Source: Thermotogaceae bacterium
Lineage (GTDB): Bacteria; Thermotogota; Thermotogae; MWEM01
Assembly (NCBI GenBank): GCA_030445775.1
Contig: JASUTC010000001.1
Span: 28,914 to 92,913, forward strand
Direction of reading: 5' to 3'
DNA length: 64,000 bases
Of the stretch, positions 1 to 41,543 are shown piece after piece. Each line of letters begins with the position of its first letter. Positions within the stretch are counted from its first letter, which is position 1. A program made the position numbers and the translations under genes. The notes under the pieces were generated by a model, which did not search any database, had not been told where the DNA came from, and worked only from the letters and a program-made list of their open reading frames with translations.

Positions 1-1974
1 TTATAAAGGAGTAAATGAAGAATTTTTCCGATAAAAGCAACAACTGTTTTTCCCGTTTTTTTTCGCTTGGTACATGGCTTTGTCGGCCATTTTAATGAGT
101 GTTTTTGAATCAGAACCGTTTTCCGGAAATACAGCAACACCAATAGAGGCTTTAATTTTTATTTTATTATGGTTGATTGTTAAAGGTTGATTGAACAAAG
201 ACATGTACTTTTTGGTTAAAGTTCTCAGATCAGAATCATTTGCTACATTAAGTGCCATTAAAATAAATTCATCACCACCAATTCTGGCGAAAGTGTCACT
301 TTTTCTACGATTCTTTTCAAAACGCTGAGCAATTCTTTTGAGTAATTGATCACCCATATCATGTCCATATGTATCGTTTATGCTTTTAAAATTATCCAAA
401 TCAATAAAAAAAAGTGCAAAAGAATCCTCATTCCGTTCTGATCGCCTTGTTTCTTGAATTAATCTATCAATGAGTAATGTGCGATTGGGTAAACCAGTTA
501 ACGGATCAAAATTAGCCCGGTAAGCCAGTTTATCAGTTTCTTCTTTTTGCTTTGAAAAATTATTTATTGTCCCTATCAAATGTTGATCAACAGGATTTCC
601 TTTTTGGCTACGTATAATATTTTTACCCTGGTGCAACACCCAGACCCACTGATCGTCCTTTGTTATTAACCGGTATTGTATCTCAAAGGAAGCGCCAGCA
701 GTTGAACCTGCCTTTCTCAAATTAGAAATAAAGGATTTAAAATCATCTTTATGTATTAAGTCGCACCAAGAGCAAAACGAGCCATCAAATCCATCGATCG
801 CTATGTTGTTGTCTTTAAGCCACCGTTTATCTGTAAAAACCTTACCAATTGTTATATTCCATTCCCACAAACCTTTATCCGATGCCCAAAGAGCCAAATT
901 GAGTTTTTCTTTAACCTCTGATAACTTTTTGTTGCTTTCTATCAACTCTTTTTCTTTTTTTCTTAGCTCTACCGTTTTTTTGTTGACCATTTCTCGCAAT
1001 TCGATTATGTTATTTCTCATCTTTTGTTTTTCATAAGATGAAATTGTTATTTGATTCAGTTCAAAAGCCAGGGCAGCTGCCCCAAGCACATAAGCATTTG
1101 ATTTTAAAGGAGATACGTTTAAAGTAAAACTGTTTTTCAAAGGCGGAATCACTTTGTTGTTTGTATATTCTTTTAGTTTGGAAATATTTGGTTCTAATAA
1201 AGATGATAATTTCCCTCCTAATACCAAAGCATCCGGATTGATGAGGTTTACAGAAACAGCAAGACCTCTTGAGAGTTTCTCCAAGTATCTGTCAAAAATT
1301 TGCCCTTCTTCGGATGAACCAGACGCCACTCGCCTGAAAAAATCTTCTAAAACAAATGGCTTGTTTAAAGTTTGCCTTTCCTCATACAATTGTTTTAAAC
1401 CCTCAATCGATACATAGGTTTCAAGACAGCCCCTGTTACCACAATAGCATCTTCTTCCTTCAGGTTCAACGATTATGTGGCCAATTTCACCGCTAGCGTT
1501 ATCTTTTCCGGTTAATAGTTGATTATTACTAACAATCCCTCCACCAACACCAGTACCAAGGGTAATCAGCATGAAATTTTGCATGTTTTTTCCAAGCCCA
1601 AACCATTTTTCTCCCAGCGTTGCAGCACTGGCATCGTTTTCAATCACAATATTAAAGCCGGTTTTGGATTTGATTGGGGTCTTTAAATCAACATTTTTCC
1701 AGTTAGAAAACTGGGGTATATATTTAATAATACTATTTTCTCTGTCTAATGTCCCAGGAAAACTAATACCGACAACATCAGAAATTTCACTGCCTTCTTT
1801 AAACGCAATCTCTTTATATTCTGAGATCACACTACAAATTTGCTCAATCGCTCTTTTTGGACTATCGGATAGATAGGAAAGTTTCCATATTTCATCAAAA
1901 ATCTCACCATTTTCATCTACCAAAGCCCCTTTTATTTGATTTCTTCCAATACCAATTCCAATTGTCCTCACCAA
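1..1974 (-). CDS. ROK-family sugar kinase fused to a PAS domain and an intact GGDEF diguanylate cyclase domain (657 aa; the stop codon is window nt 1-3)
   Basis: N-terminus IGIGIGRNQIKGALVDENG plus the Zn motif CYCGNRGCLE give the ROK/glucokinase signature. The middle has a coiled coil and a PAS-like block (LWEWNITIGKVFTD...WVWVLHQGKNII). The C-terminus carries FIDLDNFKSINDTYGHDMGD...RIGGDEFILM, an intact GGDEF. Confidence 0.8.
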   Translation of the reverse strand: MVRTIGIGIGRNQIKGALVDENGEIFDEIWKLSYLSDSPKRAIEQICSVISEYKEIAFKEGSEISDVVGISFPGTLDRENSIIKYIPQFSNWKNVDLKTPIKSKTGFNIVIENDASAATLGEKWFGLGKNMQNFMLITLGTGVGGGIVSNNQLLTGKDNASGEIGHIIVEPEGRRCYCGNRGCLETYVSIEGLKQLYEERQTLNKPFVLEDFFRRVASGSSEEGQIFDRYLEKLSRGLAVSVNLINPDALVLGGKLSSLLEPNISKLKEYTNNKVIPPLKNSFTLNVSPLKSNAYVLGAAALAFELNQITISSYEKQKMRNNIIELREMVNKKTVELRKKEKELIESNKKLSEVKEKLNLALWASDKGLWEWNITIGKVFTDKRWLKDNNIAIDGFDGSFCSWCDLIHKDDFKSFISNLRKAGSTAGASFEIQYRLITKDDQWVWVLHQGKNIIRSQKGNPVDQHLIGTINNFSKQKEETDKLAYRANFDPLTGLPNRTLLIDRLIQETRRSERNEDSFALFFIDLDNFKSINDTYGHDMGDQLLKRIAQRFEKNRRKSDTFARIGGDEFILMALNVANDSDLRTLTKKYMSLFNQPLTINHNKIKIKASIGVAVFPENGSDSKTLIKMADKAMYQAKKNGKNSCCFYRKNSSFTPL

Positions 1975-2110
1975 ACCAACACCTTAACCTTTTTTAAATA
2001 AATTATAACATGAATCATTAGCACAGCTAATAAAGAAGCCACAAGTTTTACATTATCTTTGGGCATACTAGTTTGATTTGACTCATGGTTGTATTATCTC
2101 GATAATGATT

Positions 2111-4630
2111 TTAATCTGTTAGAAAATCAAACAATGAACGTACATGTATTGATTGATCACTAATCTCACCATCATATCGAAAATGTACGACTTTTTTTTC
2201 TCCTGAGAAACTAAAATAATTATCACTGAAAATCAAGTCTTCTGTTGATTCAATCAAACAGTATAAGACTGGTTTGTCGGCTTGGATAATGAGTGAATTT
2301 TTGTTTTCTTCTTTTTCTATTTTATATTTGATTGTTGGTTTTAAAAGGGACAGATTCTTGGGTGGGGTAAATAATTTGAAACCTTCTGAAACGCATTTAT
2401 CAGATTGATCAAATGCTTTGAAAAAGAGAATGGTGTTTTTAGAATCTATCCCAATATCTTTAAAATTTACCCTCTCCACTACTGATGAAAAGAGTCCGGA
2501 AGCATAAAGACTCCCTTCTTTTTGATATAGAATTTCACCTGTTAGATCCATCAATTTAAACGCATACCTACCGTTGAACTTCACCGGTAAATCATTACAA
2601 AACCAGATCTCAAAAAACTCCGGTGTTTCATGTGCATTGATATAAAAAGGATTGTAAAATCTTTTAGCAAAGTAATGTAAAGCCTTCCATCGACCATAAT
2701 AATCAATAGAAGACCAACTTGCAACAGGCCAGCAATCGTTAATTTGCCAATAAAGAGCACCCATACAATGACAATTATTCCTATTTCTTCTCCAATGTTC
2801 TACACCATATTCCATAGCTTCAGCTTGTGTTATTTGTGATAGTATGACTTGTTTTTCAAAAGACTGTGGAATCTTAAATCGTTTCTCCATATAATCATAT
2901 ATCTTTTGATTACCTGCCGGATTCTTTTGATGATTTTCCATGATTTTGCTGTCATAATACATTTGATTCGTTTTGCAGAAACTTTTTATGGTTTTAATAT
3001 CTGGAAAAGATTCAAATCCAAATTCCGACATAAACCTTGAATCAAATGTTCTATATGATTCCAGCGGAAAGCCTTCATGCCATACTTTCCAATAATGTGA
3101 ATCTCCGTAATTTGGTGATTGTGGATCTTGAAAACTGCCACCAGAAGATGGAGAACTAGGCCAATAAGGACGAAAAGGATCATAATCTTTAATTAATTGC
3201 GGAAGGGTTTCTTCAAACAATTTTATATAAAATGATTTGTACTGTGGAACGAATTGATCGAATCCCCAATACAACCATCCTTCCTCAATTTCGTTATTAC
3301 CAACCCAAATTGCAAGAGAAGGGTGGTTTCTTAAACGTTTGATGTTGTCAATCGCTTCTTTAATAACAGATTCTTCAAAGCCGCTGTAATCCGGAGTTGG
3401 TCTACATGCAAAAGCAAAGTCCTGCCAAACTAATAACCCTTTCTCGTCACAATAATGATAAAAGGCATCTTCTTCATAAATGCCACCCCCCCAGACTCTT
3501 ATCATGTTCATATTTGCCTGAACACAGGCATCAAGTATTTTTTTATAAGTCTTTTTTCGTGTTCCCCTTGTTAAAAATGAATCTGTTGGCACCCAGTTTC
3601 CACCTTTTGCAAAAACAGGAATTTTATTTAATTCAAAATAAAAGGTTTCGCCCCATCTGTCTTCTTTTCTAATTAAACAAATCTCACGAATGCCAAAATG
3701 AGTTGAATATTCATCCAACAATTGTTCTCCATCAAAAAGTTTGACTATTAGACGGTAAAGGTTTGGTTTTCCAAGATCATGACTCCACCATAATTTAGGG
3801 TTTTTAATCATTAGTTTTTTTTCTGTACCCATTTTCATTGAATCAATTTTCTCTGAATGTAACAGAACTTCTCCATCAAAGATCTGATAAAGAATCGTTT
3901 TATCCCCATTTTCACGAAAATCCTCAAGCTCCGTTTCCAAGGTTATTTCTGCTTCTTTCGCAGTTGGCCTGCCATTACCATCTCCAATAATAAATTCTAT
4001 TTCTGTTTGAACTTGAACTGACCTAATATAAGAGTCATTAAATGCATGGAGCTCAACTGTTCTCCAAATACCCGAATCGGGAAGTTTAGGACCCCAATCC
4101 CAGCCAAATGAATAATAAGCCTTCCTTAACATTTCCACACCGGGTATTGCGAATGGGAGATGATATTTGCTCTTTGAATCAATACTCAATCCGGATTGTT
4201 TGAGCTTTTCTTGAGCCTCTTTAACAGGACTTCTAAATCTAATAGTTAATTTGTTGTCTCCCTCTTCTAAAAAAGAATATTCCTTGGTTTTGATATAAAC
4301 CTCGTAGGTTCGGTGCATATTTTCTCCAAAAAGGATTACCCGATCATTTAAAATCACTTGACAATAAGTATCCAGTCCGTTAAATCTTAACATGCAGTAA
4401 TCTTTTTCCACTATCTCCTTACTAAAACTTATAATTGTAGAATATTCCCAATCAGTCTCATAAACCCATTGACAGTCTTTTTCATTTATCCCGTAAAAAG
4501 GGTCCTTAATAACATTGTTTTCAAGTAGTGTTTCGTACACACTACCCGGAACTTTTGCTTTATATTTTTTGTTTTCTTCAACTTCCTTTAAACTCCAATT
4601 GCGATTTAATTCTTTAACAATATGTTCCAT
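2111..4630 (-). CDS. Glycoside hydrolase family 2 beta-mannosidase-like enzyme (839 aa)
   Basis: The size is typical of GH2 beta-mannosidases, and the protein contains the WVGNNEIEEGW acid/base-type NE motif. Confidence 0.7.
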   Translation of the reverse strand: MEHIVKELNRNWSLKEVEENKKYKAKVPGSVYETLLENNVIKDPFYGINEKDCQWVYETDWEYSTIISFSKEIVEKDYCMLRFNGLDTYCQVILNDRVILFGENMHRTYEVYIKTKEYSFLEEGDNKLTIRFRSPVKEAQEKLKQSGLSIDSKSKYHLPFAIPGVEMLRKAYYSFGWDWGPKLPDSGIWRTVELHAFNDSYIRSVQVQTEIEFIIGDGNGRPTAKEAEITLETELEDFRENGDKTILYQIFDGEVLLHSEKIDSMKMGTEKKLMIKNPKLWWSHDLGKPNLYRLIVKLFDGEQLLDEYSTHFGIREICLIRKEDRWGETFYFELNKIPVFAKGGNWVPTDSFLTRGTRKKTYKKILDACVQANMNMIRVWGGGIYEEDAFYHYCDEKGLLVWQDFAFACRPTPDYSGFEESVIKEAIDNIKRLRNHPSLAIWVGNNEIEEGWLYWGFDQFVPQYKSFYIKLFEETLPQLIKDYDPFRPYWPSSPSSGGSFQDPQSPNYGDSHYWKVWHEGFPLESYRTFDSRFMSEFGFESFPDIKTIKSFCKTNQMYYDSKIMENHQKNPAGNQKIYDYMEKRFKIPQSFEKQVILSQITQAEAMEYGVEHWRRNRNNCHCMGALYWQINDCWPVASWSSIDYYGRWKALHYFAKRFYNPFYINAHETPEFFEIWFCNDLPVKFNGRYAFKLMDLTGEILYQKEGSLYASGLFSSVVERVNFKDIGIDSKNTILFFKAFDQSDKCVSEGFKLFTPPKNLSLLKPTIKYKIEKEENKNSLIIQADKPVLYCLIESTEDLIFSDNYFSFSGEKKVVHFRYDGEISDQSIHVRSLFDFLTD

Positions 4631-4680
4631 AACATTTACTCACCTCAAAAAAGCTCTTCTATAGATCGTTAATAAACTTT

Positions 4681-6408
4681 TTAAAAGATCGCAGGTACAA
4701 ATTCAAAGGTATTGATATCAATCAAACCAAGATTAGTAATCTTTAACTCCGGAATCACTTCCAGTTGAACAAAGGACAGTGCCATAAAAGGGTTGTCAAT
4801 CGTACAACCAAGCTTTTCTTTAACCGCCCTAAGTAACTTATTTTGCTTTTTTAATACATCTTCAAGTGACTCAGTTGACATTAAACCGGCTATCGATAGG
4901 GGTAAGGAGGCAATAACTTTTCCGTTTAAAGCAACGGACATACCGCCTTTGTTTTTTATTACATTGTTCACAGCACATTCCATATCTCTATCATCCTTTC
5001 CGGTAACGGAAATATTATGAGAATCATGTCCTACGGATAACGCTAGTGCTCCTCTTTTCATACCGGTACCGGTTATAAAACCCAAGGCAAATTGCTTTTT
5101 ATCAGTATATCGATTAACAATGCATATCTTGGCAAAATCAATCTGAGAACAATCCGGTTCACCATTAACAACTTTTGTGGTTTCAATGACTTCTTTGGTT
5201 AAAACAGAATCACCAAATACCTTTATTGCCCGGATATTGACTTTGTCTTGTTTAAGTTTGAACAAAAAATCATCAGCTTGATAATAGGGGCAATTCACGG
5301 TGTTGATCACTTCTTTAAAATTCGTTAATGATGGTGGGAACTTTGCAACACATTGGCCTTTTTCAGCTACAATTTTGGCATCTTTGATGACCATCTCAGG
5401 GTAAAAATGATTCAAATCAGATACCACTACCATATCTGCTTTATAACCTGGTGCGATTGCTCCCATACTGCGCAAACCATAATGCCTGGCTGTATTTATG
5501 GATCCGATTCTTAAAGCTGTTATGGGATCAACCCCTTTTTCGATGCTGATTCGAATCATTTCATCTATATCACCATTTACGATATCTTCCGGATGTTTAT
5601 CATCTGTACAATACGAGAGATAGGGTTGGGTTTTTTCATTTACGATGGGAAGAAGATTTTCCAAATCTTTTTCACCGCTTCCATACCTCATCAAAACTTG
5701 CATTCCACAAGATAATTTTTCATATGCTTCATCTGCAGTTGTACTTTCATGATCCGATTTAATAAAAGCTGCCGAATAAGCATTTAAATCTTTACCTGTA
5801 AGACCGGGAGCGTGTCCATCAATTTTTTTATATTTATGTCTGAATAATTCAATCATGGTTAAGAGATTTTCATCTTGATTTAAAATCCCCGGATAATTCA
5901 TAACTTCGCCCAAACCAAGTACACGAGGGTGTTTTTCTATAAAGCCGATCATATCCATTACTTTGACTTTTGCACCGTTTGTTTCCATATTTGTCGCCGG
6001 AACACAGGAAGGCAGCATGAAATAAATATTTAATGGAATCCCTTCAGTGTAATTCAAAAAGAATTCCACTCCCTTCAATCCCATCACATTTGCTATCTCA
6101 TGAGGATCCGCAATGACCGTTGTTGTTCCCCTTGCTAAAACAGCCTTCGCGAATTCCCTTGGTTCCAACATTGTGCTTTCAATATGCAAATGTGCATTAA
6201 TTAGTCCGGGAACCAGAAATTTCCCCTCTAAATCAATGACCTTTTTACCTTTTTTATAATCACCGATACCGGCGATACGTTTCTGAAAAATTGCTACGTT
6301 TGTCTCTTTTATATCTCCTGAAAAAACGTTGACAACTTTTGCGTTCTTGATTAGAAGATCTGCCGTTTGTTCCCCTTTTGCTACAGGAATAATATCAATC
6401 GCCCTCAT
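4681..6408 (-). CDS. Adenine deaminase (amidohydrolase superfamily)
   Basis: 575 aa with the metal-binding block GLINAHLHIEST and the VGHDSHN motif, which together match the adenine deaminase pattern. Confidence 0.75.
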   Translation of the reverse strand: MRAIDIIPVAKGEQTADLLIKNAKVVNVFSGDIKETNVAIFQKRIAGIGDYKKGKKVIDLEGKFLVPGLINAHLHIESTMLEPREFAKAVLARGTTTVIADPHEIANVMGLKGVEFFLNYTEGIPLNIYFMLPSCVPATNMETNGAKVKVMDMIGFIEKHPRVLGLGEVMNYPGILNQDENLLTMIELFRHKYKKIDGHAPGLTGKDLNAYSAAFIKSDHESTTADEAYEKLSCGMQVLMRYGSGEKDLENLLPIVNEKTQPYLSYCTDDKHPEDIVNGDIDEMIRISIEKGVDPITALRIGSINTARHYGLRSMGAIAPGYKADMVVVSDLNHFYPEMVIKDAKIVAEKGQCVAKFPPSLTNFKEVINTVNCPYYQADDFLFKLKQDKVNIRAIKVFGDSVLTKEVIETTKVVNGEPDCSQIDFAKICIVNRYTDKKQFALGFITGTGMKRGALALSVGHDSHNISVTGKDDRDMECAVNNVIKNKGGMSVALNGKVIASLPLSIAGLMSTESLEDVLKKQNKLLRAVKEKLGCTIDNPFMALSFVQLEVIPELKITNLGLIDINTFEFVPAIF

Positions 6409-7339
6409 TTTCGCTCCGCTCCTTTTTTATTGATTTTTTGATAGAAATACCAAATCTTTCTTCCTCAATATTACCCATCGGTTCTATGTGAATTAGAACG
6501 TCATAAATGTTGTCAATTCTTTTTTTAATTGTTTTTTCCACTTCTTTAGCAATCTCATGGCCTTGGTATACACTCAAATTACCGGAAACTTCAATATCAA
6601 GATCCACAATGAAATAGGATCCAATCTTTCTTATTCTTACCCTGTGAGGATTATGTGCATTTTCAATGGATGAAATCACTTCAAACAATTTTGCATAAAT
6701 TATCGTATCATTAATACCTTCCATTAATTCGTTATTCTCTTCCCAAAAAATTTGAATGGCAACTTTTATGATCCAACCACCGATAAATAAGGCAATAAGC
6801 TTATCAAAAAAAGGATACTGAAAGATAGAAGTCAAAACCAATCCAATTAAAACACTAATTGATAAAACGATATCGTTTCTCATGTTTTTTGCATCAGCAA
6901 TGAGCATGGAACTATTTTCTTTTCTTCCGATATTGTATTTGTAATAAGACAAGAATATTTTGATTGCTATTGAGATCAAAGTAACATAAATCGCAATCAA
7001 TCCTGGAATGCCAGACATTTTACCACTAATAATATCTTGAACAGATGTTGTGATTAGTTGTATCCCTGCATAAAAAATGATAAAAGAAAGTATTCGTGTT
7101 GCAATGGTTTCAGCTCTTCCATGACCATAAGGATGATTTTCATCGGGAGGTTTATCGATTATATTTGAAACCCATAATGTTAAAAGAGAAGTCAAAATAT
7201 CAGTAGCGCTATCTACTCCATCACCGATAACAGCTAAGCTTCCGGTTTTAAAACCTGTGAAAATCTTTATAATTGCAAGAAACAGATTCCCGTAAAAGCC
7301 GACCCAAGATGCCTTTTTGATGTTTTTTATTCGACTCAA
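6395..7339 (-). CDS. Cation diffusion facilitator (CDF) family metal efflux transporter
   Basis: About six predicted TM helices with the HPYGHGRAETIA signature and a C-terminal cytoplasmic domain. Its end overlaps the start of the adenine deaminase gene by 14 nt. Confidence 0.75.
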   Translation of the reverse strand: MSRIKNIKKASWVGFYGNLFLAIIKIFTGFKTGSLAVIGDGVDSATDILTSLLTLWVSNIIDKPPDENHPYGHGRAETIATRILSFIIFYAGIQLITTSVQDIISGKMSGIPGLIAIYVTLISIAIKIFLSYYKYNIGRKENSSMLIADAKNMRNDIVLSISVLIGLVLTSIFQYPFFDKLIALFIGGWIIKVAIQIFWEENNELMEGINDTIIYAKLFEVISSIENAHNPHRVRIRKIGSYFIVDLDIEVSGNLSVYQGHEIAKEVEKTIKKRIDNIYDVLIHIEPMGNIEEERFGISIKKSIKKERSENEGD

Positions 7340-7427
7340 TCCATCACCCCGATTTCTATTAACTATTTACTTATTGTACATTAAATCCTCTATTTTTTAC
7401 AACTCTTTTTATCAAATTTTATAAAAA

Positions 7428-7457
7428 TTGCCTCATCTGCCAAGTTAATGGTATAAT
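7428..7457 (+). promoter_or_regulatory. Sigma70-like promoter candidate for the HU gene, with -35 TTGCCT, an 18-bp spacer and an extended -10 TGgTATAAT
   Basis: The sequence reads ttgcct..(18 bp)..tggtataat. The RBS gggaggt lies at 7504-7510 and the ATG at 7517. Confidence 0.45.
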
Positions 7458-7516
7458 CAGCTTGTAAGGGGGAAAGTTTTTCCTGACAACAAAATTAAAC
7501 ATTGGGAGGTCATGTT

Positions 7517-7789
7517 ATGAATAAACTTCAATTGGTTAAAGCACTAGCGGAATCAAACGATACCACACAAAAACAATCCGAACAATTCTTGAACAGTTTA
7601 ATTAAAACAATTGTTGATGAATTATCGGATAGCGGTGAGGTTAAACTGGTAGGTTTTGGAACTTTTAAGACAAAGATTAACGAGGCAAGAAAAGGAATTA
7701 ATCCCCAAACAAAGAAAGAAATAAAGATTCCCAAAAAAAGAGTTCCTAAATTTGTAGCCGGAAAAGACCTAAAAGAAAAAGTAAAATAA
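7517..7789 (+). CDS. hup: HU/IHF-family nucleoid-associated DNA-binding protein
   Basis: The sequence MNKLQLVKALAE...GFGTFKTKINEARKGINPQTKKEIKIPKKRVPKF is the HU fold signature. The track ORF begins at a TTG at 7502, but the ATG at 7517 has the strong RBS. Confidence 0.85.
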   Translation: MNKLQLVKALAESNDTTQKQSEQFLNSLIKTIVDELSDSGEVKLVGFGTFKTKINEARKGINPQTKKEIKIPKKRVPKFVAGKDLKEKVK

Positions 7790-7799
7790 TTGTTTAAAA

Positions 7800-7826
7800 A
7801 AGAGGCGTAGGAGCCTCTTTTTTTTA
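7800..7826 (+). terminator. Rho-independent terminator after the HU gene
   Basis: A hairpin agaggc-gtagga-gcctct is followed by a run of eight T. Confidence 0.7.
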
Positions 7827-7966
7827 ACCCTTTATTGAGATATATGAGTTTTTTCGACTATTTTTTGACCTTTAATAATTTTTCCCCTGAAACGAACCTC
7901 ATGATATTAGTTTTCAATACTTTTCTCATAAAGAATGCTTGATCTCAATTGTATCTTTCTGAATGA

Positions 7967-8063
7967 TTCTAAAAAACCTTCTGTGAAGAGGGTTTTTATT
8001 TACAATATCTTGATCAAAAAACTCGTCGAAAATCCCAAATTATCAACGAGTTTTCTACATGTT
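7967..8063 (-). terminator. Two tandem hairpin/T-run terminators downstream of the ABC operon, read on the minus strand
   Basis: One hairpin is aaaaaccttc..gagggttttt at 7967-7995. The other is aaaactcgt-(19 nt)-acgagtttt at 8020-8057. Each is flanked by A/T runs. Confidence 0.5.
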
Positions 8064-8065
8064 AT

Positions 8066-8725
8066 TTAGAGATGGTCCTTTTTCAACATGTTTTGAACAC
8101 CTTTTTTGGCCACTGGGTAGGCAATCAGGATTCCACTGAAGCAAATAATGAGAAGAATCATCACCATTTGATTTCCTGTTAAATTGTTTCTTAACAAATA
8201 ACCCAGGTATCCCAATATCCCTGCAAAACCAAATACAATAAGGATTGAATACAATCCGTTGATATTCTGCTTCATTGCCTTTTGAGGATTATCCCAGGTT
8301 AGATATGGAAAAGCTGCATCCAGTGTTATTTGAAGAAGATTGAGGAATAAAACCAACAGTTCTGCAACCATAAAGATAATCACAGCTTGCAAAAGAGTAA
8401 CCTGAAAGAGCAAAATCAAAATAATGGCAATCGATAGTGGTCCGACAGTACTCATGATCATAACATGAAGTAGTTTTATCTTAAAAACCGTATTTGCTTC
8501 AACTGGTAAAACCTTTAATTCCGCCAACATTTTCCCTTCACGACTAAAGATTGTTGAAGCAAGCATATTCATCGCTCCAACGATTGTTCCAAGAAGAATA
8601 CCTGCGGGAATTATATATTCTTTGGCGTTGTTAATGAAATCAAATATTTGCTGAAATTCCGGGTTGTTTGTTGCAAACGAAAAGATTACAATCAGTACCG
8701 GAAAAACGATCTGAGGAATGTTCAA
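8066..8725 (-). CDS. ABC-2 type transporter permease; possibly the C-terminal half of a frameshifted longer permease
   Basis: A multi-TM hydrophobic protein. The ORF starts at a TTG that sits directly after an in-frame stop. It overlaps the upstream permease ORF by 86 nt in a different frame. Confidence 0.55.
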   Translation of the reverse strand: MNIPQIVFPVLIVIFSFATNNPEFQQIFDFINNAKEYIIPAGILLGTIVGAMNMLASTIFSREGKMLAELKVLPVEANTVFKIKLLHVMIMSTVGPLSIAIILILLFQVTLLQAVIIFMVAELLVLFLNLLQITLDAAFPYLTWDNPQKAMKQNINGLYSILIVFGFAGILGYLGYLLRNNLTGNQMVMILLIICFSGILIAYPVAKKGVQNMLKKDHL

Positions 8726-11968: not shown

Positions 11969-13474
11969 ATGTCCGACAAAATCGTTATAATCGATGGATA
12001 TATAGATGAACCTGCTCAATTTGGCGTCCCTCCTTATATTTCACCAACTTGTCGTTATGCCTTTGGTTGCTATATGTTCTATGGAGTTACTCCTGAATAT
12101 TATACGATTGATCAAATTAGAGAGCATGACCTTTGGAATTATCTAAATGGTTTTGATCATCTTATTTTAATCGGTGGTGTTAGTGTCCCCGGTAAATACA
12201 TCGGGGGTAATCCCGTAAAATACACCGAACTGGAAAAAATTTCTCAATATGCACCACATCCCCTGAAAATCTATAAAGGGCCATATACTTTGGGTTATAC
12301 TAGTAAAGGGGGACGAGATGCTCATGTTATCGAACATCTGAATAATTTATACGATTGCCCTGTAACAGGTAATTTGGAAACCTTTTTATTTTACTTGTTA
12401 AAAGGTGATCTTCCTGCTGAATCTATTGAGAAAGACGAGGCTGTTTTTGAAAAGATCACTCAATATGGCGCACCAATCATTAGACAACACCCGAATTATC
12501 CCGATCTAATCTGTGAAATTGAAGTCTCTACAGGATGTGAAAGAAATAGCCACTGTTCCTTTTGTACAGAACCACTTTTTTACGGTAAATATCACGAAAG
12601 ATTGCCTGAAAAAATTCTCAAAGAAATTGAGGGACTTGTCAAAAATGGGGCTAGATACTTCAGGTTGGGGCGTGCAGCAAATATATTGGCATATGGATAT
12701 ACAAAAAACGATAAAGATGGTTTATTTTTAGATCAATTATATTCCGGTATTAGACAAAAATGCCCAAAATTAGGTATGCTTCACACTGATAATGCAAATC
12801 CTGGATTCATACAAAACAATCCGATGATTTCAGAAAAAGCTATAAAAATAATTTCACAGTACAACACCTCCGGTGACAGTCTATCCTTTGGTGTAGAAAG
12901 TTTTGACGAAACAGTCATTAAACAGAACAATTTGGCTATAGATCCCGATGGCGTTATCTCCGCTTGTGAAACAGTTAATCGCGTCGGTGGTTTTTTAAAA
13001 GATGGTGTACCGGCCTTGCTACCAGGGATTAACCTTTTGTTTGGATTAATAGGGGAAAGCACCAAAACATTTGACATCAATTTTAAGTACTTAAAGAAAC
13101 TAATGGAAAAAGGCATTTTATTGCGTAGAATAAATATAAGAAAAGCTATGGTTTTTCCCGAAACTCCACTTTACCGTTATATTCAAAAACATAAAATTAA
13201 GTCTCATTCACGTGAATTTAGAAAATTCAAAGAAAAAGTCAGAGAAGAAATCGACAGACCAATGCTTAAAAAAGTCTATCCCTCTGGAACAATAATAAAA
13301 GATGTGATTGTGGAATACAATAAAGGAAACATATCCTTCGGGAGAAAACTTGGTACTTATGCAATTTTAATCGGTATTAGAAAAAAAATAAAACCGGGAA
13401 CAAAATTAAATGTCAGAATAACCGAACACGGTTACAGATCAGTTACTGGTGTAATTGAAAATGAGGATGGATAA
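11969..13474 (+). CDS. Large radical-SAM family Fe-S oxidoreductase with an atypical Cx5Cx2C cluster motif (501 aa)
   Basis: The cluster motif reads GCERNSHCSFC, giving Cx5Cx2C spacing, and an aromatic-rich region follows. An N-terminal ~180-aa domain (KIVIIDGYIDEP...) resembles the front domain of class-B/COG1032-type rSAM enzymes. Confidence 0.6.
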   Translation: MSDKIVIIDGYIDEPAQFGVPPYISPTCRYAFGCYMFYGVTPEYYTIDQIREHDLWNYLNGFDHLILIGGVSVPGKYIGGNPVKYTELEKISQYAPHPLKIYKGPYTLGYTSKGGRDAHVIEHLNNLYDCPVTGNLETFLFYLLKGDLPAESIEKDEAVFEKITQYGAPIIRQHPNYPDLICEIEVSTGCERNSHCSFCTEPLFYGKYHERLPEKILKEIEGLVKNGARYFRLGRAANILAYGYTKNDKDGLFLDQLYSGIRQKCPKLGMLHTDNANPGFIQNNPMISEKAIKIISQYNTSGDSLSFGVESFDETVIKQNNLAIDPDGVISACETVNRVGGFLKDGVPALLPGINLLFGLIGESTKTFDINFKYLKKLMEKGILLRRINIRKAMVFPETPLYRYIQKHKIKSHSREFRKFKEKVREEIDRPMLKKVYPSGTIIKDVIVEYNKGNISFGRKLGTYAILIGIRKKIKPGTKLNVRITEHGYRSVTGVIENEDG

Positions 13475-13476
13475 TT

Positions 13477-14541
13477 ATGGCCGAAGAAATTATCAATGAA
13501 TTTGATCTTTTTGCAGTTCACATTAAAATTAACTGTATTTCACTTGATGAAGTGATTGTTGGCTATTTTTTCGGTAAAAAAAACGAAAATTTGGAGTACA
13601 CGTTCTTTAATTTTCCCGCCTCTGTAAGACAAAGATTACCCGATATCAACAATAACCCACACCTTAATTTTAAAGAAGAACTTAATGAAATATCAAATAA
13701 ATTGATTCCCGACCATCCAGAAATCGTTGAGAGAAGCGCTAAATTGATGGATTACATTAATATTCAATTTAGAAAAATCGGAGGATTAGAACGTTTTTCA
13801 AAGAAGGTTTCCTATTTATTCGAATTGGACGAAAAAGACGAAATCAGTATGGAGTTACTGGGATTATTTGATAACTGGGTCGAAAAGAAGGAATTGCAAT
13901 ACACTGCCGAGCTCTTTTCTGCTGAAGATTATACAAAACAAGTAATGGAAAGTGCAGAATTCTATCCCGAGATGGAAAATATCACCAATTATCTTGATTT
14001 AACGAAAATGATTGAATTTTACCCTCTAATAGATCCAATTCAAGGAATCTCTATTGATGCCTTTGAGGTTGGCATGTCTTTAAGAATCACAATCCTTTCA
14101 TTTCCGGATGAGGAAACAGAAAAACTTATCAAAGATCATTATCAAGATCATATCGACCCGAAAGAAGGTTATTTAAAAACCATTGAAGCTGACATTGTAT
14201 CAAAGGAGTTACTTTCAGGAAAAAATGACACTTATGTACTTGTAAAGGTTCACTTATGTGAGGATATCTATGCTTATTCAATCATTCTCAAATCTTTAAA
14301 ACTCAATCGAAACCAGATTCTCAAACGTAATCTATTACCACCCATACAAGAGGAAGATGAAAGTATCCCCTCAGGTGAAGAAAAGATTTTCACGGGGAGA
14401 ATAAAAAAGGAAACCAAAGTATTTTCAACGCTGAAAGAAAAAGCGAAATTTAAAATAACAGATTTGATATTAGTTTTAATAATTGTGGGAGGGAGCATCG
14501 CATTAACCGCGTTATTAATTGACTTAATATCAAAAAGATGA
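13477..14541 (+). CDS. Uncharacterised protein, C-terminally membrane-anchored (paralogue A of a two-member family in this window)
   Basis: 354 aa with a single C-terminal TM helix LILVLIIVGGSIALTALLIDLI. It shares motifs with the 16976-18007 product: GYFFGK/GFFFGK, FxNF, FYP(L/I)(I/V)DP and EGY. Confidence 0.6.
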   Translation: MAEEIINEFDLFAVHIKINCISLDEVIVGYFFGKKNENLEYTFFNFPASVRQRLPDINNNPHLNFKEELNEISNKLIPDHPEIVERSAKLMDYINIQFRKIGGLERFSKKVSYLFELDEKDEISMELLGLFDNWVEKKELQYTAELFSAEDYTKQVMESAEFYPEMENITNYLDLTKMIEFYPLIDPIQGISIDAFEVGMSLRITILSFPDEETEKLIKDHYQDHIDPKEGYLKTIEADIVSKELLSGKNDTYVLVKVHLCEDIYAYSIILKSLKLNRNQILKRNLLPPIQEEDESIPSGEEKIFTGRIKKETKVFSTLKEKAKFKITDLILVLIIVGGSIALTALLIDLISKR

Positions 14542-15488
14542 AACAAATGGGAAGTGTAAGCATGAACAATATCTTTGGAATCGTTCCCTCAAGAAGGTTG
14601 GGAAGATCATTAGGGGTAAGTACCATTCCAATCAGTACATGTAGTTATTCATGCGTTTATTGCCAGCTTGGCAGGACCAGAAACATGACTATCAGACGTC
14701 ATAATTTCTTTAAAATCGATGATCTTGTTATGCAGTTGAAAGGTTATCAGGATAAAAAAGACAAATTTGATGTGATCACCCTTGTAGGAGAAGGTGAACC
14801 AACCTTATACGAACAAACAGGGGAGCTGATAAAAAGAATAAAACAGCTTTTTGATAAACCGATAGCACTCATTACAAATGGTTCCTTATTTTTTCTGGAA
14901 GAAGTTCGACAGGATTGTATGCATGCAGATATTGTCATGCCAACATTGGATGCATGGGATGATGATAGTTTCAAAACTTTAAACAGGCCGTTTAAAACCA
15001 TTACCTTTGAAAAGATGTACAATGGATTAGTGGATTTCAGAGGAGAATATAAAGGTGACTTTTATCTGGAAATCATGTGTGTAAAGGGAATCACTGACCA
15101 AGGTAATAACATGGCGTTGTTAACCGAAAAAATCAACAAATTAAATCCTGACAAGGTATTTGTCAATACACCCGTCAGACCACCTGCGGAAAAATGGGTT
15201 GAAAGATGTACTAAAGAATTTATAGAGAAATTACAAAAACAATTTAAAACAAACACAGATTTAGAAATACCTGATACAAATTTATACAGTCATAATCTTG
15301 ACCTTTACCAGGCGATAATCGAAATCATCAAACGCCATCCACTTGATCAATCCAGTATAGAAAAGTTCTGTAAAAACCGGGAAGAAGATCCTGAACAGAT
15401 GATTAAAAGATTATCAGAAGATAAAAATGTAGAAAGAATTAAGTATGAGAATAAGGTGTTTTATAGAATAAAATCAAAAAAGAGGTAA
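14538..15488 (+). CDS. Radical-SAM enzyme (PflA/QueE-like small class)
   Basis: The canonical cluster motif CSYSCVYC (CxxxCxxC) is present, along with the glycine-rich GEGEPTL and ITNGSL blocks. The start overlaps the previous gene by 4 nt. Confidence 0.7.
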   Translation: MKQMGSVSMNNIFGIVPSRRLGRSLGVSTIPISTCSYSCVYCQLGRTRNMTIRRHNFFKIDDLVMQLKGYQDKKDKFDVITLVGEGEPTLYEQTGELIKRIKQLFDKPIALITNGSLFFLEEVRQDCMHADIVMPTLDAWDDDSFKTLNRPFKTITFEKMYNGLVDFRGEYKGDFYLEIMCVKGITDQGNNMALLTEKINKLNPDKVFVNTPVRPPAEKWVERCTKEFIEKLQKQFKTNTDLEIPDTNLYSHNLDLYQAIIEIIKRHPLDQSSIEKFCKNREEDPEQMIKRLSEDKNVERIKYENKVFYRIKSKKR

Positions 15489-15489
15489 A

Positions 15490-16845
15490 TCAATGAAGGT
15501 TTTCCACCACATTCTTCAACCAAGACCCCTTTTTATACCGTTTGATCAGAACAAAGAATTTTGTCGTTTCTTCAACCATACACAAAGAATAAACGACTGG
15601 AAAAGGCCATTTTAAGACAAGACCTGCAATAGCTGTTACTGGAATACCAATAAGCCAAAGACAACCGGCCTCAACATAAAAGGAAAATTTAGTATCGCCT
15701 CCAGCCCTCAAGATTCCTACTATAAATAAACCGTTGAGGATTTTTATCGGGGAATAAAGCATGGACAACCTTAGTAGAAGGATGGCAAGTTTTTTTACTT
15801 CCTCACTCACTGAAAAAAGATTAACAAATTGAGGGGCAAAAACAATCATAGGAGTTACGAAAAGGACAACTAAAAAAAGATCAAGATAAATGATCTTCTT
15901 TGAAATATCTTTTGCTTTCTTAAAAGAAGATTTGCCCAATTCTTGTCCTATAATTACTGCGGCAGCATTCGACAATGCCATTAATACCGCAAATGAAAAA
16001 CGCTCTATACTGTTCATGATCCTGTTAGCAGCTAAAAGACTTGTTCCCATATAACTGTAGATGATGGTATACATGGAAAAACCTGTAGACCAAAACAATT
16101 CGTTTAATACGGTTGGGGTTGTATATTTCATGAAGCGTTTAAAAAAAGATTTAGATAAACTTTTAAAATGCACAATATGCACTCTTCCTGGATATTTCTT
16201 CCCGTAGATAATGCATAAAATCAACACCATTTCAAATATTCTGGACAATAATGTACCAATACCGGCTCCCTCGATTCCTAATTTCGGAAACCCGAAATTA
16301 CCAAATATCAGTGAGTAATTAAGAAGAACATTTAAACCGATTGCAATCATACTGACCATCATTGGAATAACGGCTTTTTCTGTGTTTCTTAAGACAAAGG
16401 CATAGGTCATGGTAATCCCGAAAGTAATAAAGCTAAAACTGATGGCGGATAAATACTTTGTTCCTTCCCTGATAACGGCTTGGTCTGGAGAAAATATCCT
16501 TAGAGTATTTTCAGGAAAGAAAAAGGCCAGTACAAAAAAAACAACTGAGAAAATCAGGGAACAGGAAATCATTAAAGCGGTCGTTCGAGAAATATTAAAT
16601 TCCTGCTTTGTCCCCCAAAATTGTGCAATAAAGATAGAACCACCGGAAACAAGTCCAAACATGACTACGTTGAATATAAAGAAAAATTGGTTAGATAAAC
16701 CGACTGCGGATATGGAAACTTCCCCAAGTTGCCCGATCATTAACATATCCACAAAGTTCATACTGCTTAAAATGATTTGTTGAATTGCTATCGGTAATGC
16801 CACTTTAAAGAGTCTTCTATAAACATTCATGCTGGATTTTAACAC
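15490..16845 (-). CDS. MATE-family multidrug/oligosaccharide efflux transporter
   Basis: 451 aa with about 12 TM helices. The topology and length fit the MATE fold. The gene is convergent with the rSAM gene and their ends are 2 nt apart. Confidence 0.65.
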   Translation of the reverse strand: MLKSSMNVYRRLFKVALPIAIQQIILSSMNFVDMLMIGQLGEVSISAVGLSNQFFFIFNVVMFGLVSGGSIFIAQFWGTKQEFNISRTTALMISCSLIFSVVFFVLAFFFPENTLRIFSPDQAVIREGTKYLSAISFSFITFGITMTYAFVLRNTEKAVIPMMVSMIAIGLNVLLNYSLIFGNFGFPKLGIEGAGIGTLLSRIFEMVLILCIIYGKKYPGRVHIVHFKSLSKSFFKRFMKYTTPTVLNELFWSTGFSMYTIIYSYMGTSLLAANRIMNSIERFSFAVLMALSNAAAVIIGQELGKSSFKKAKDISKKIIYLDLFLVVLFVTPMIVFAPQFVNLFSVSEEVKKLAILLLRLSMLYSPIKILNGLFIVGILRAGGDTKFSFYVEAGCLWLIGIPVTAIAGLVLKWPFPVVYSLCMVEETTKFFVLIKRYKKGSWLKNVVENLH

Positions 16846-16975: not shown

Positions 16976-18007
16976 GTGTCAATGGAGTTTGATTTTTTTT
17001 CAGTTAAAGTATATGCGGAAAGTCAGTCATCAGACGAAATCATTTTAGGTTTTTTCTTTGGCAAAGTGGAAGGACGTTTGGAATTCCAATTTATCAATTT
17101 TGCCAGAAGGTTTAAAGATTTGGCAAAAATAAATCTCAAAGAAGATCTTAACGATTTTAAAAAGGACCTTAACCAGATTTATAGAAAACTTATTGCCAGA
17201 AGTGGAGACATCATTTCAAAAACGAATGATTTTTCCAATTATCTAAAATCTTATATCAATAAAAACGGCGGAAGACTCACTTTCAGCAATAAACTCAGTA
17301 CCATTATTGAAAATAAAGATACAGAAGCGGTAAGATCATTACTCAGGGAACTGTTTGATGAATGGACCAGTGATGTAAAAATCAGATTTGACTGGGGTTG
17401 TTCAACCTATAATGAGATGAGTTTGGAAGAGTCTTCGAAAACTGAACAATCTTTAGACATTCAAAGTGCGATTGAAAAGACAAAAGACAGAAAAGATCTT
17501 TTGGATATGGCGGATTTTTATCCAATCGTTGATCCCATGGAGGGTAAACCTGTGGCAAGTCTTAAGGTTGGTGACTCAATCTATCTAACCGTTGTTAATT
17601 TTAACGATGAAGGCGAAGAACAGAGGCTCGTTAACAGCTATCCAGATAAATTTGATGAAAATGGGAAAAACATTAAACCTTTTGAAGGTTATATTACCGC
17701 TATGGAATATTGTTCAGCAGAAAAAGGGACTGTATTATTGAAGGTACAAATTGATGAATGGTTTCTGGCAAAGGCAATTATTATGTCCAATATTCGAATA
17801 ATGCAGACAAACCGACGAAAAAATTTGTTAAAACAGAATGCAATGGACCAAGATAATATAACAGACACTTTAGTCCAAAAATCCGAGAAAAAAAGTGAAC
17901 AAGAAGATGGCGTTTCCAGAGAAACGTTAATTGACCGTCTTATTATCTCATCCTTAATCGCTCTCATTGTCATCACTATTTTAATCATTATATTCATTTT
18001 TCTATGA
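16976..18007 (+). CDS. Uncharacterised protein, C-terminally membrane-anchored (paralogue B)
   Basis: About 30% identity along its full length with the 13477-14541 product. The C-terminal TM helix is LIISSLIALIVITILIIIFIFL. The ATG at 16982 has an aagg RBS. The stop lies 1 nt before the MetH-activation-domain gene. Confidence 0.6.
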   Translation: MSMEFDFFSVKVYAESQSSDEIILGFFFGKVEGRLEFQFINFARRFKDLAKINLKEDLNDFKKDLNQIYRKLIARSGDIISKTNDFSNYLKSYINKNGGRLTFSNKLSTIIENKDTEAVRSLLRELFDEWTSDVKIRFDWGCSTYNEMSLEESSKTEQSLDIQSAIEKTKDRKDLLDMADFYPIVDPMEGKPVASLKVGDSIYLTVVNFNDEGEEQRLVNSYPDKFDENGKNIKPFEGYITAMEYCSAEKGTVLLKVQIDEWFLAKAIIMSNIRIMQTNRRKNLLKQNAMDQDNITDTLVQKSEKKSEQEDGVSRETLIDRLIISSLIALIVITILIIIFIFL

Positions 18008-40607: not shown

Positions 40608-41543
40608 TTATTTAGTTCTCTCTAAGGCAACTGAGGCAGCTCCGAGGATAGCCCCCTTTTCCTTCAATTCGCTGATGATTATATCATAAGAATGAGATAA
40701 AGATGGATAGGTATGCTCATGAGCAACTTGTTTAACCTCTTCAAGAAATATATCACTGGCTCTTGATATGCCTCCAGATAGAATAATCAAATCCGGATTA
40801 AATATATTAACCAAGGAACCGATACCTATTCCCAGGCCCCAGTTAAATTTTCTAACTACCAGGGTTGCCAATCGGTCTCCTTCTTTAAAAGCATCGAAAA
40901 TCGCCTTTGCGTCTACCGGTCCATTTCCTGAGTATTTGAACACAAGTGAATCGGGATAACGTTCTTGAAATATTTTGACCCATTTACGCATACCTGTGAC
41001 AGACGAAAAAGTTTCGAGACAGCCTTTACTGCCACAACTGCAAACAGGGCCACTGGGATCTACAATCATATGACCGATTTCACCACCATATCCATGTCCC
41101 CCAACTATGAGATGCCCTTCTGTATACGCTCCCCCTCCTACACCCGTTCCAAGGGTAAGTACGATGAAATTATCAATGTTTCTTGCAGATCCAAACCACC
41201 TTTCACCTAAAGCCGCTGCCTTTGCATCATTTTCAAGATAAGCATCATATCCGGTACTCTCCTTAATCATTCTCACCAGTTCAACACCATTCAAGGCTGT
41301 AATATTGTTTGCGTACATTATTACACCATTTTCTCTGTCTATTGAACCCGGAGATCCTATTCCAACCTTTACAGGCTCATCCAGGGCAATTTCTTTGATT
41401 AAACCGATAATTCTATTACAAATCATTTCCGTTCCTTCATTGACAAGCGTTTTAGTTGTTTTTTGTCTGGTGATTTCACCATTCTCATCAACGAGAGCGG
41501 CCTTTATATTTGTTCCTCCCAGATCCACGCCCACTATCTTCAT
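40608..41543 (-). CDS. glcK: ROK-family glucokinase (stand-alone)
   Basis: VGVDLGGTNIKAALVDENG plus the CSCGSKGCLE motif. At 311 aa it is the stand-alone counterpart of the kinase domain of the fused protein at 1-1974. Confidence 0.8.
   Translation of the reverse strand: MKIVGVDLGGTNIKAALVDENGEITRQKTTKTLVNEGTEMICNRIIGLIKEIALDEPVKVGIGSPGSIDRENGVIMYANNITALNGVELVRMIKESTGYDAYLENDAKAAALGERWFGSARNIDNFIVLTLGTGVGGGAYTEGHLIVGGHGYGGEIGHMIVDPSGPVCSCGSKGCLETFSSVTGMRKWVKIFQERYPDSLVFKYSGNGPVDAKAIFDAFKEGDRLATLVVRKFNWGLGIGIGSLVNIFNPDLIILSGGISRASDIFLEEVKQVAHEHTYPSLSHSYDIIISELKEKGAILGAASVALERTK

Follow-up and report, generated by a model that had tools for sequence, protein, structure and literature searches.

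Gene and domain organization

The DNA analysed here (the window) is a stretch of 64,000 nt from a Thermotogaceae bacterium (GenBank assembly GCA_030445775.1, contig JASUTC010000001.1, positions 28,914 to 92,913 of the forward strand), and it begins exactly at the stop codon of a minus-strand gene. The encoded protein consists of an N-terminal ROK domain, a long helix, a PAS domain and a C-terminal GGDEF domain. As judged from its sequence, the ROK domain is almost certainly non-catalytic, and on balance this kinase-dead domain probably senses a sugar-type ligand and controls an active diguanylate cyclase. The gene, its domains and its main motifs are located as follows (dN/dS, ratio of nonsynonymous to synonymous substitution rates; pLDDT, predicted local distance difference test).

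1..1974, minus strand: complete coding sequence of the ROK-coiled coil-PAS-GGDEF protein (open reading frame list and translation; identical to database protein P0001)
1051..1974, minus strand: ROK (ASKHA-fold) domain, residues 1-308 (Pfam PF00480; AlphaFold2 pLDDT ~95; Foldseek)
1936..1959, minus strand: degenerate phosphate-1 (ATP) loop, residues 6-13, GIGIGRNQ instead of G-x-D-x-G-G-T-x (alignments to 2qm1, 3vgk, Mlc, NagC and the window glucokinase)
1420..1489, minus strand: ExGH sugar/zinc motif G162-E-I-G-H166 and zinc motif C176-x-C178-G-x-x-G-C183-x-E185 (conserved without exception in the fused proteins, the kinase and NagC)
1210..1218, minus strand: position of the adenosine motif, G253-G254-K255, G-G-G in kinases (alignments, family conservation)
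883..1038, minus strand: continuous helix of 52 residues, 313-364, with a leucine-zipper-like heptad (AlphaFold2 secondary structure, heptad invariance, dN/dS)
559..873, minus strand: PAS domain of the PAS_3 type, residues 368-472 (Pfam PF08447, similarity to 3mr0, AlphaFold2)
34..555, minus strand: PAS-to-GGDEF linker helix (474-488) and GGDEF domain to residue 647 (PF00990, TIGR00254, solved diguanylate cyclases)
265..306, minus strand: I-site R557-K-S-D560, a five-residue spacer and the signature G566-G-D-E-F570 (translation; family-invariant; aligned with solved cyclases)

The coding sequence comprises 657 codons and runs from a TTG at 1974 to a TAA at nt 3-1 as one uninterrupted minus-strand open reading frame, as the initial annotation had stated. 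Gene callers place the start at a GTG at 1971, 3 nt downstream of the TTG, which yields 656 amino acids. An in-frame TAA is found 9 nt upstream of the TTG and an AAGGTG lies 5-8 nt ahead of the start, so that a hidden N-terminal domain or extension is not present. The identical protein recurs, each time as one gene, on 10 or more contigs drawn from six JGI metagenomes, showing that the two halves are not separate genes, and orthologs of the fused protein occur in seven other species known from metagenome-assembled genomes (MAGs).

The Pfam search assigns ROK (PF00480) to residues 4-303 (E-value 3e-61; 207.9 bits against a cut-off of 22.9; profile positions 1-291 of 294), PAS_3 (PF08447) to residues 394-462 (2e-10; 41.1 bits, cut-off 25.6) and GGDEF (PF00990) to residues 487-643 (8.5e-49; 165.9 bits, cut-off 23.8), each above the curated cut-off. 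The NCBIfam model TIGR00254 matches the GGDEF domain with 163.4 bits (cut-off 37.4), in agreement with the Pfam domains. An AlphaFold2 model of the monomer, computed from a 60-sequence alignment (mean pLDDT 93.8; predicted TM-score, pTM, 0.55), divides the protein into the ROK domain (1-308), a helix (313-364), the PAS domain (368-472), a linker helix (474-488) and the GGDEF domain (498-647). A Foldseek comparison superimposes the N-terminal half on ROK kinases and repressors with target-normalised TM-scores of 0.83-0.91, including NanK, glucokinases and Lmo0178, and the C-terminal part on PAS-GGDEF proteins; among the solved structures none spans both halves. The succession of a ROK fold in the first ~310 residues, a coiled coil of about 50 residues, a PAS-like domain and a GGDEF domain, which had been proposed from the sequence alone, is thereby borne out.

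The heptad residues of the 52-residue helix (I323, V330, L337, L344, L351 and L358) are invariant in the family, and the helix is presumed to act as a dimeric coiled-coil signal transmitter. The PAS domain is predicted to form a five-stranded sheet with flanking helices (pLDDT >90) and resembles the sensory-box PAS structure 3mr0 (E = 2e-6); it is an ordinary PAS_3 'sensory box' and gives no clue to a cofactor.

The GGDEF domain appears to be a canonical, active-looking diguanylate cyclase, in which every catalytic residue and the RxxD feedback site are kept. It opens with DPLTGLPNR and matches solved diguanylate cyclases, including Thermotoga maritima tDGC (4urs), with E-values of 1e-39 to 1e-33. 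Its catalytic residues align column for column with those of solved active cyclases and are invariant in the family; the residues for metal and GTP binding are D525-L-D527, N533 and D542, within FFIDLDNFKSINDTYGHDMGD, and K638 and K642, within YQAKKNGKN. The RxxD I-site is separated from the GGDEF signature by exactly five residues (T-F-A-R-I), and the presence of this invariant RKSD-x5-GGDEF arrangement agrees with the earlier description of an intact signature and I-site.

Nucleotide, sugar and zinc sites of the ROK domain

At the position of the phosphate-1 motif DxGGT the fused protein reads G8-I9-G10-R11-N12 (within IGIGIGRNQIKGALVD), with the Asp, the second Gly and the Thr replaced by Gly, Arg and Asn, respectively. 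The natural comparator is encoded in the same window.

40608..41543, minus strand: stand-alone canonical ROK glucokinase, outside the system (DLGGT, TLGTGVGGG, SGG; 37% identity to the fused ROK domain)

In this protein, which is found where the initial annotation had placed it, the phosphate-1 region is VGVDLGGTNIKAALVD, with DLGGT, and solved glucokinases read GIDLGGT or GVDIGGT. The adenosine region of the fused ROK domain is LGGKLS, versus SGGIS in the stand-alone copy. The ATP-binding N-terminus had been called intact in the initial annotation; this is incorrect, with DxGGT changed to G-I-G-R-N and GGG to GGK, so that two of the three nucleotide motifs are lost. Its proposal that the fused copy is a sensor rather than the metabolic kinase stands as a reading, but the premise of an intact ATP motif does not. 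The NCBIfam glucokinase model TIGR00744 (cut-off 260.35) does not discriminate between the two proteins, as the fused ROK domain (166 bits) and the stand-alone copy (222 bits) both score below its cut-off.

The residues of the sugar and zinc sites are, by contrast, invariant: G74 (PG), N113-D114 (ENDA), E163 and H166 (GEIGH), and C176, C178, C183 and E185 (CYCGNRGCLE). The zinc motif is thus intact as annotated, and the alignment to characterised glucokinases shows that the catalytic Asp is retained as D114. In the clade that includes the window protein the phosphate-2 loop TLGTGVGGG and the ENDA Asp are identical to those of kinases; for comparison, the window glucokinase reads GVDLGGTN, ENDA, TLGTGVGGG, GEIGH, CSCGSKGCLE and SGG.

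The pattern is consistent throughout the family. Every member of the close clade (60-90% identity) carries G-[IA]-[IV]-G-R-N-Q and G-K, with G10-R11-N12-Q13 and K255 invariant. The architecture and a homologous coiled-coil junction are shared by two distant full-length orthologs of 37% identity, which stem from Petrotogaceae and Kosmotogales MAGs. In this distant clade the nucleotide site is more eroded than in the close clade (ISIYIYGSEIK, TLT[SF]GVG[SA]G, for example TLTSGVGSG, and SGH, with His at the position of K255), while ENDA, EIGH and CxCGxxGCxE are kept, indicating that the ATP site drifts between the clades and the sugar/zinc site is frozen. A further ROK-PAS-GGDEF protein, P0023, has Lys at the position of K255. 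All enzyme-type ROK relatives retrieved (stand-alone proteins, ROK-PMI fusions and the first domain of ROK tandems) keep DxGGT, TLGTGVGGG and GGG. The loss of DxGGT and GGG in every fused member, more severe in the distant clade, forms the main argument for a non-catalytic sensor, and speaks to the question raised in the initial annotation of whether the kinase domain is catalytic or only binds sugar.

These observations bear directly on the alternative that the protein is a bifunctional enzyme, with sugar kinase activity preserved in the ROK domain and the cyclase gated by kinase turnover or by substrate occupancy. In its favour, the window clade retains the catalytic base D114, the phosphate-2 loop, ExGH and the zinc motif, the fused ROK domain is closest by distance to kinase-type ROK proteins including the glucokinase of the same genome, and one ortholog is annotated at NCBI as 'glucokinase'. 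Nevertheless, this alternative is highly improbable, considering that the Asp, second Gly and Thr of DxGGT are replaced, that Lys (close clade) or His (distant clade) takes the place of the third Gly in the adenosine motif, that the phosphate-2 loop is also eroded in the distant clade, and that a canonical glucokinase is already present in the genome. Moreover, DxGxT is catalytically important (Kazanov et al., PMC3553997), and it is precisely this motif, together with GGG, that the enzyme-type relatives retain.

The changes at the phosphate-1 loop resemble those of ROK transcription factors. The loop of Escherichia coli NagC (GVRLGRHD) contains Gly-Arg as in the fused ROK domain, Mlc (LRISRGE) has the Arg, and the helix-turn-helix (HTH) ROK regulators among the database matches read D[IV]GRS or K[IV][GS]RR. 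In Thermotogae such regulators are experimentally sugar-responsive, positions 116/117 in the ATP loop are specificity-determining residues that line the effector site, and the Asp equivalent to D114 contacts the sugar 6-OH (PMC3553997); these positions were mapped with a register of our own to G74, N113, E163, H166, E185 and G10/R11. The β6-β7 specificity loop, whose register is ambiguous by a one-residue insertion, reads YIPQ in the fused protein and YMPH in NagC, versus YANN in the window glucokinase and SPN in other kinase-type relatives, and is thus of the regulator-like type too. Not all features of the regulators are shared: Mlc and NagC have His-Asp and a scrambled phosphate-2 loop, whereas the fused protein has N113-D114 and, in the window clade, TLGTGVGGG.

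The inducer of NagC is GlcNAc-6-phosphate. This suggests a refinement of the sugar-sensor reading, in which the ROK domain senses a phosphorylated sugar (glucose-6-phosphate, mannose-6-phosphate or GlcNAc-6-phosphate) through R11 and K255 in the former pocket for the ATP γ-phosphate and adenosine. R11 and K255 are invariant in the close clade and replace glycines lining the nucleotide site, NagC has the same Gly-Arg loop and a similar Y-x-P-H/Q specificity loop, and D114, the sugar 6-OH contact (PMC3553997), is kept beside the pocket. The refinement is nevertheless unlikely as it stands, as Mlc also has the Arg and is not known to bind a sugar-phosphate, and the distant clade has Y-G-S and His instead of G-R-N and Lys. 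A literature search on the GlcNAc-6-phosphate site of NagC yielded nothing informative.

The selection acting on the four segments was estimated from three unsaturated ortholog pairs by the Nei-Gojobori method. The dN/dS ratios are 0.06-0.16 for ROK, 0.04-0.15 for the coil, 0.07-0.19 for PAS and 0.08-0.17 for GGDEF. The altered ROK domain is as constrained as the cyclase, and its substitutions are fixed and selected rather than the result of decay. Equal purifying selection on all four segments suggests that the ROK domain is a maintained, almost certainly non-catalytic ligand-sensor module. The low dN/dS across the junction, together with the identical single open reading frame in six metagenomes and the MAG orthologs, rules out two genes split by a stop as well as an assembly chimera, and a dN/dS of about 0.1 rules out a decaying pseudogene for the window copy.

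Distribution, origin and genomic context

The fusion is rare. A word-indexed search of 5.8 billion proteins revealed only seven clusters at 90% identity with the ROK-PAS-GGDEF architecture; the distant clade has only two 90% clusters, and the family comprises about nine. An exhaustive profile search of 1.84 billion representatives at 50% identity returned just two full-length proteins, P0004 and P0150, and no further ROK+GGDEF protein was present among its best 150 matches, which were screened for both domains. As the lowest of these matches scores 238 bits, and a generic ROK domain (at least 120 bits) with a canonical GGDEF domain (at least 150 bits) would exceed this floor, further fusions with a canonical GGDEF domain must be very rare; divergent fusions such as P0023 (about 187 bits) lie below it. 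Every member recovered from a genome belongs to an uncultured Thermotogota MAG, under the label Thermotogaceae, Thermotogota, Petrotogaceae or Kosmotogales. At NCBI a few MAGs are instead labelled 'Bacteroidales' or 'Bacteroidota'; this clashes with the assignment of all species-representative genomes to Thermotogota and probably stems from binning errors. The orthologs (P0297, P0128, P0138, P0121) are variously annotated as 'glucokinase' (a Kosmotogales MAG), 'ROK family protein' (Bacteroidota/Bacteroidales MAGs), 'hypothetical protein' (Thermotogaceae) and 'diguanylate cyclase (GGDEF)-like' (JGI). The literature search found no description of a ROK-GGDEF protein, nor of a ROK pseudokinase sensor outside transcription factors, and the Galperin survey of HD-GYP architectures does not mention ROK.

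In a distance-based tree of ROK domains (neighbour-joining, Kimura distances, 500 bootstrap replicates) the two fused Thermotogota clades are sisters in 67% of the replicates, which gives moderate support for a single origin. The nearest non-fused relative of the fused ROK domain is the window glucokinase, followed by other kinase-type ROK proteins and not by HTH regulators, which makes convergence the probable origin of the regulator-like loop. Most economically, a glucokinase paralog of Thermotogota would first have been fused to a standard PAS-GGDEF cassette and would later have lost its ATP site, with convergence on a regulator-type loop. P0023, a ROK-PAS-GGDEF-HD-GYP protein of 793 residues from Logan assemblies (L011 8001-10382, also L012 and L013; ERR14026134 and others), groups by its ROK domain with ROK-PMI enzymes and is monophyletic with the Thermotogota clades in 2% of the bootstraps. 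It represents an independent fusion, which implies that fusion and loss of the ATP loop arose at least twice.

Another ROK pseudokinase module joined to an enzyme was encountered in tandem ROK-ROK proteins of about 650 residues (P0008, P0009, P0011, P0177, P0188, P0217). Their first domain is a canonical kinase with DxGGT and GGG, and the second has a degenerate phosphate-1 loop (HVGRTG or HVGASG) and an S-G-[RP] adenosine motif.

Two features lie directly upstream of the gene.

1980..2010, minus strand: putative own promoter and ribosome-binding site (TGTTATAAT at 2010-2002, extended -10; AAGGTG at 1985-1980)
2111..4630, minus strand: upstream same-strand neighbour, glycoside hydrolase family 2 (GH2) β-mannosidase of 839 amino acids (Pfam Glyco_hydro_2_N2, Mannosidase_ig, Ig_mannosidase)

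In the window and four related loci (L001, L002, L003 and L005) the gene is preceded on the same strand by genes for a CDF transporter, an adenine deaminase and the GH2 β-mannosidase, with a spacer of about 125-147 nt after the latter. The extended -10 element, about 25 nt upstream of the start, is kept in the three closest loci (the window, L002 and L005), although the rest of the 136-nt spacer is poorly conserved, suggesting that the gene probably has its own promoter; in L001 and L003 it has no recognisable counterpart. The consensus scan for promoters and terminators performed no better than on shuffled sequences, and the element was missed because its -35 region is weak. No terminator was detected between the β-mannosidase gene and the fusion gene. 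An Rfam scan of 1-8200 found nothing, indicating that no c-di-GMP (cyclic diguanylate) or other riboswitch is present near the gene.

Downstream lie the convergent genes fliS, a DUF8042 gene and a NUDIX gene. The 3' end of fliS overlaps the last 6 nt of the fusion coding sequence (L014 7966-8475 (-), with equivalents in L001-L005) and is located beyond position 1 of the window. The distant-clade gene faces, in convergent orientation, a cluster of GH13, MalEFG-like ABC transporter and LacI genes, so that glycoside-hydrolase genes adjoin the fusion gene in both clades. In one close relative (L008 6238-6840; Thermotogota MAG242, JAYEGQ010000121.1) the ROK-PAS-GGDEF gene has shrunk to about 600 nt and consists only of an 85-residue C-terminal open reading frame, equivalent to residues 573-657, and scrambled fragments, with the neighbours kept (GH2 92% and FliS 92% identical). 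The shrinkage may be natural, by deletion or pseudogene formation, or may reflect a collapse in the assembly.

Two other genes of the window may belong to c-di-GMP signalling. The first (26168-27964 (+)) encodes a membrane-anchored protein of 598 residues with a degenerate GGDEF domain (REGTF; Pfam 43 bits) and an RxxD I-site (RTSD) at the canonical five-residue spacing, and could by its motifs be a c-di-GMP receptor rather than a cyclase. The second (57142-58038 (+)) encodes an HD_5/HD protein of 298 residues with an HD and a GYP-like motif present as GFP (HHERFDGKGFPDGL) and a 120-residue N-terminus without domain assignment, and is a candidate HD-GYP c-di-GMP phosphodiesterase; it is directly followed by a gene resembling the G3P antiterminator (58035-58589). 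The degenerate GGDEF protein and the HD-GYP-type protein indicate that c-di-GMP signalling has other parts in this genome.

Elsewhere in the window two DUF4899 paralogs of 354 and 343 residues are encoded at 11969-15488 (+) and 16976-18007 (+). The first paralog is flanked by two radical-SAM genes, and a MatE exporter gene (15490-16845 (-)) lies between the two loci. A REC-Hpt fusion of 244 residues (48907-49641 (-)), an unusual small phosphorelay component, is encoded beside a BTAD-domain protein (47716-48882 (-)).

Proposed function and comparison with known systems

ROK proteins dimerise via their large lobe and close around the sugar, and the last helix of the ASKHA fold packs against the small lobe. 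In the proposed mechanism a hexose-type sugar or sugar-phosphate would bind in the cleft between the two ROK lobes and cause these to close. Here the C-terminal ROK helix continues straight on as the 52-residue helix, and closure of the lobes in a dimer would therefore displace or rotate a parallel coiled coil. This movement would pass through the PAS domain and the linker helix and determine whether the two GGDEF domains meet productively. GGDEF activity requires two such domains, each loaded with GTP, to come together; c-di-GMP would then be produced from two molecules of GTP, with product binding at the RxxD site limiting the output. The output would likely be a switch between motile and attached or polysaccharide-degrading states, as suggested by the flanking β-mannosidase and the convergent fliS and by the receptor-like degenerate GGDEF and HD-GYP-type proteins. 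Sensing of a sugar in particular is suggested by the conserved sugar contacts, the precedent of the ROK regulators (PMC3553997) and the glycoside-hydrolase neighbours.

Several observations weigh against this assignment. With YIPQ the β6-β7 loop departs from the glucose-type A-x-N/S-P-N, and the distant clade has yet another sequence there; the ligand may therefore be a sugar other than glucose, or no sugar at all. Mannose was considered as the ligand in view of the GH2 neighbour and the Pro in the specificity loop, but the hint is too weak for such a claim. Mlc is not known to bind a sugar. Most of the 'sugar' residues are present in Mlc as well, but what it responds to is a protein partner (PDB 3bp8, Mlc/EIIB), which implies that conservation of these residues is no proof of sugar binding and that H166 and E185 may serve the zinc site alone. 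The intact TLGTGVGGG of the window clade would still allow nucleotide binding. The dimeric coiled-coil mechanism is extrapolated from an AlphaFold2 model of a monomer with a pTM of 0.55. The synteny within the close clade reflects shared ancestry, the neighbours being 78-94% identical versus 61-90% for this gene, and the gene is largely deleted in L008 and hence dispensable there.

The example of Mlc also underlies the alternative that the ROK domain binds no small molecule but serves as a dimerisation scaffold, or as a protein-docking surface as in Mlc with EIIB, with the PAS domain or a partner protein providing the real input. A bona fide PAS domain is indeed located between ROK and GGDEF, the phosphate-1 loop is like those of Mlc and NagC with Arg at the same position, and Mlc itself keeps ExGH, the zinc motif and the Asp in a protein that forms the complex seen in 3bp8. 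On the other hand, the fused protein keeps, unlike Mlc and NagC, the kinase-type N113-D114 and in the window clade the full TLGTGVGGG, and its pocket residues do not vary between clades of only 34-37% identity while the residues of the ATP site drift. In addition, no phosphotransferase-system or transporter gene is adjacent to the fusion gene in the window. A scaffold role is consequently considered rather unlikely, although less so than the sugar-phosphate refinement. The readings weighed here overlap in part, and the likelihoods given to them are not meant to add up to unity.

If the sugar-sensor reading is carried through to its full extent, the protein would be a glucokinase paralog turned pseudokinase receptor, in which the former ATP pocket (R11, K255) reads the intracellular pool of sugar or sugar-phosphate and sets c-di-GMP through the coiled coil. 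It would then constitute a one-protein link from carbohydrate status to the motile/sessile decision that has evolved at least twice and has an output route, the C-terminal helix, unlike that of all known ROK regulators. This extended interpretation is put forward tentatively. Diguanylate cyclases are wired to many sensor domains, but little is documented of cytoplasmic sensors that couple sugars directly to c-di-GMP, and the protein is a testable candidate for such a link. Should the interpretation be correct, an enzyme-derived pseudokinase module would join the input repertoire of second-messenger signalling, and the sensor logic of NagC-, Mlc- and XylR-type repressors could move to an enzymatic output via the C-terminal helix. 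The protein would also offer a simple in vitro system, with a single soluble protein, for ASKHA lobe closure transmitted through a coiled coil. Moreover, the labels 'glucokinase', 'ROK family protein' and 'hypothetical protein' carried by the orthologs mislead the metabolic reconstruction of Thermotogota MAGs.

Compared with ROK glucokinases (Enterococcus faecalis 2qm1, Streptomyces griseus GlkA 3vgk and the protein encoded at 40608-41543), which are its best matches in sequence and structure, the fused ROK domain shows 30-37% identity, TM-scores of 0.83-0.87 and identical ENDA, TLGTGVGGG, ExGH and zinc motifs. In contrast to these enzymes it lacks DxGGT and GGG, has a β6-β7 loop that is one residue longer and without the glucose-type A-x-N, and carries a signalling extension of 350 residues. 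With the PAS-GGDEF cyclases (Pseudomonas aeruginosa PA0861/RbdA PAS-GGDEF-EAL 5xgb, 5m3c, T. maritima tDGC 4urs, PleD, WspR and DgcZ) the protein shares the DxLTGLxNR start, the GGDEF and RxxD motifs and a dimerising helical linker, and its PAS-GGDEF region is up to 40-45% identical to many database proteins; none of the cyclases compared, however, has a ROK/ASKHA input. The closest parallel in architecture is P0023, where a ROK domain without DxGGT (GISLSVTS) and with Gly-Lys at the adenosine position is likewise N-terminal to PAS and GGDEF. That protein differs in having no long coiled coil, an additional HD-GYP domain and GntR and ABC transporter genes as neighbours.

By its motifs the fused ROK domain bears the signature of a sensor-type ROK. 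It has in common with the ROK regulators (NagC, Mlc, XylR; TreR, ManR, GluR, BglR and ChiR of Thermotogae; Lmo0178 of Listeria) a non-catalytic, effector-sensing ROK fold in which DxGxT is altered and the zinc motif and the core sugar contacts are kept. Unlike these regulators it lacks an N-terminal winged HTH domain, as the protein starts at the first strand of the ROK fold and has no Pfam HTH match, and the DNA-binding output is replaced by the enzymatic output of the C-terminal coiled coil-PAS-GGDEF part. As a system the protein is not of a new kind, nor is it biochemically surprising; it represents a rare, lineage-restricted input-domain variant of the sensor-diguanylate-cyclase class, in which the ROK input is what is new. 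Conceptually, it is a ROK regulator with a c-di-GMP synthase in place of the DNA-binding output.

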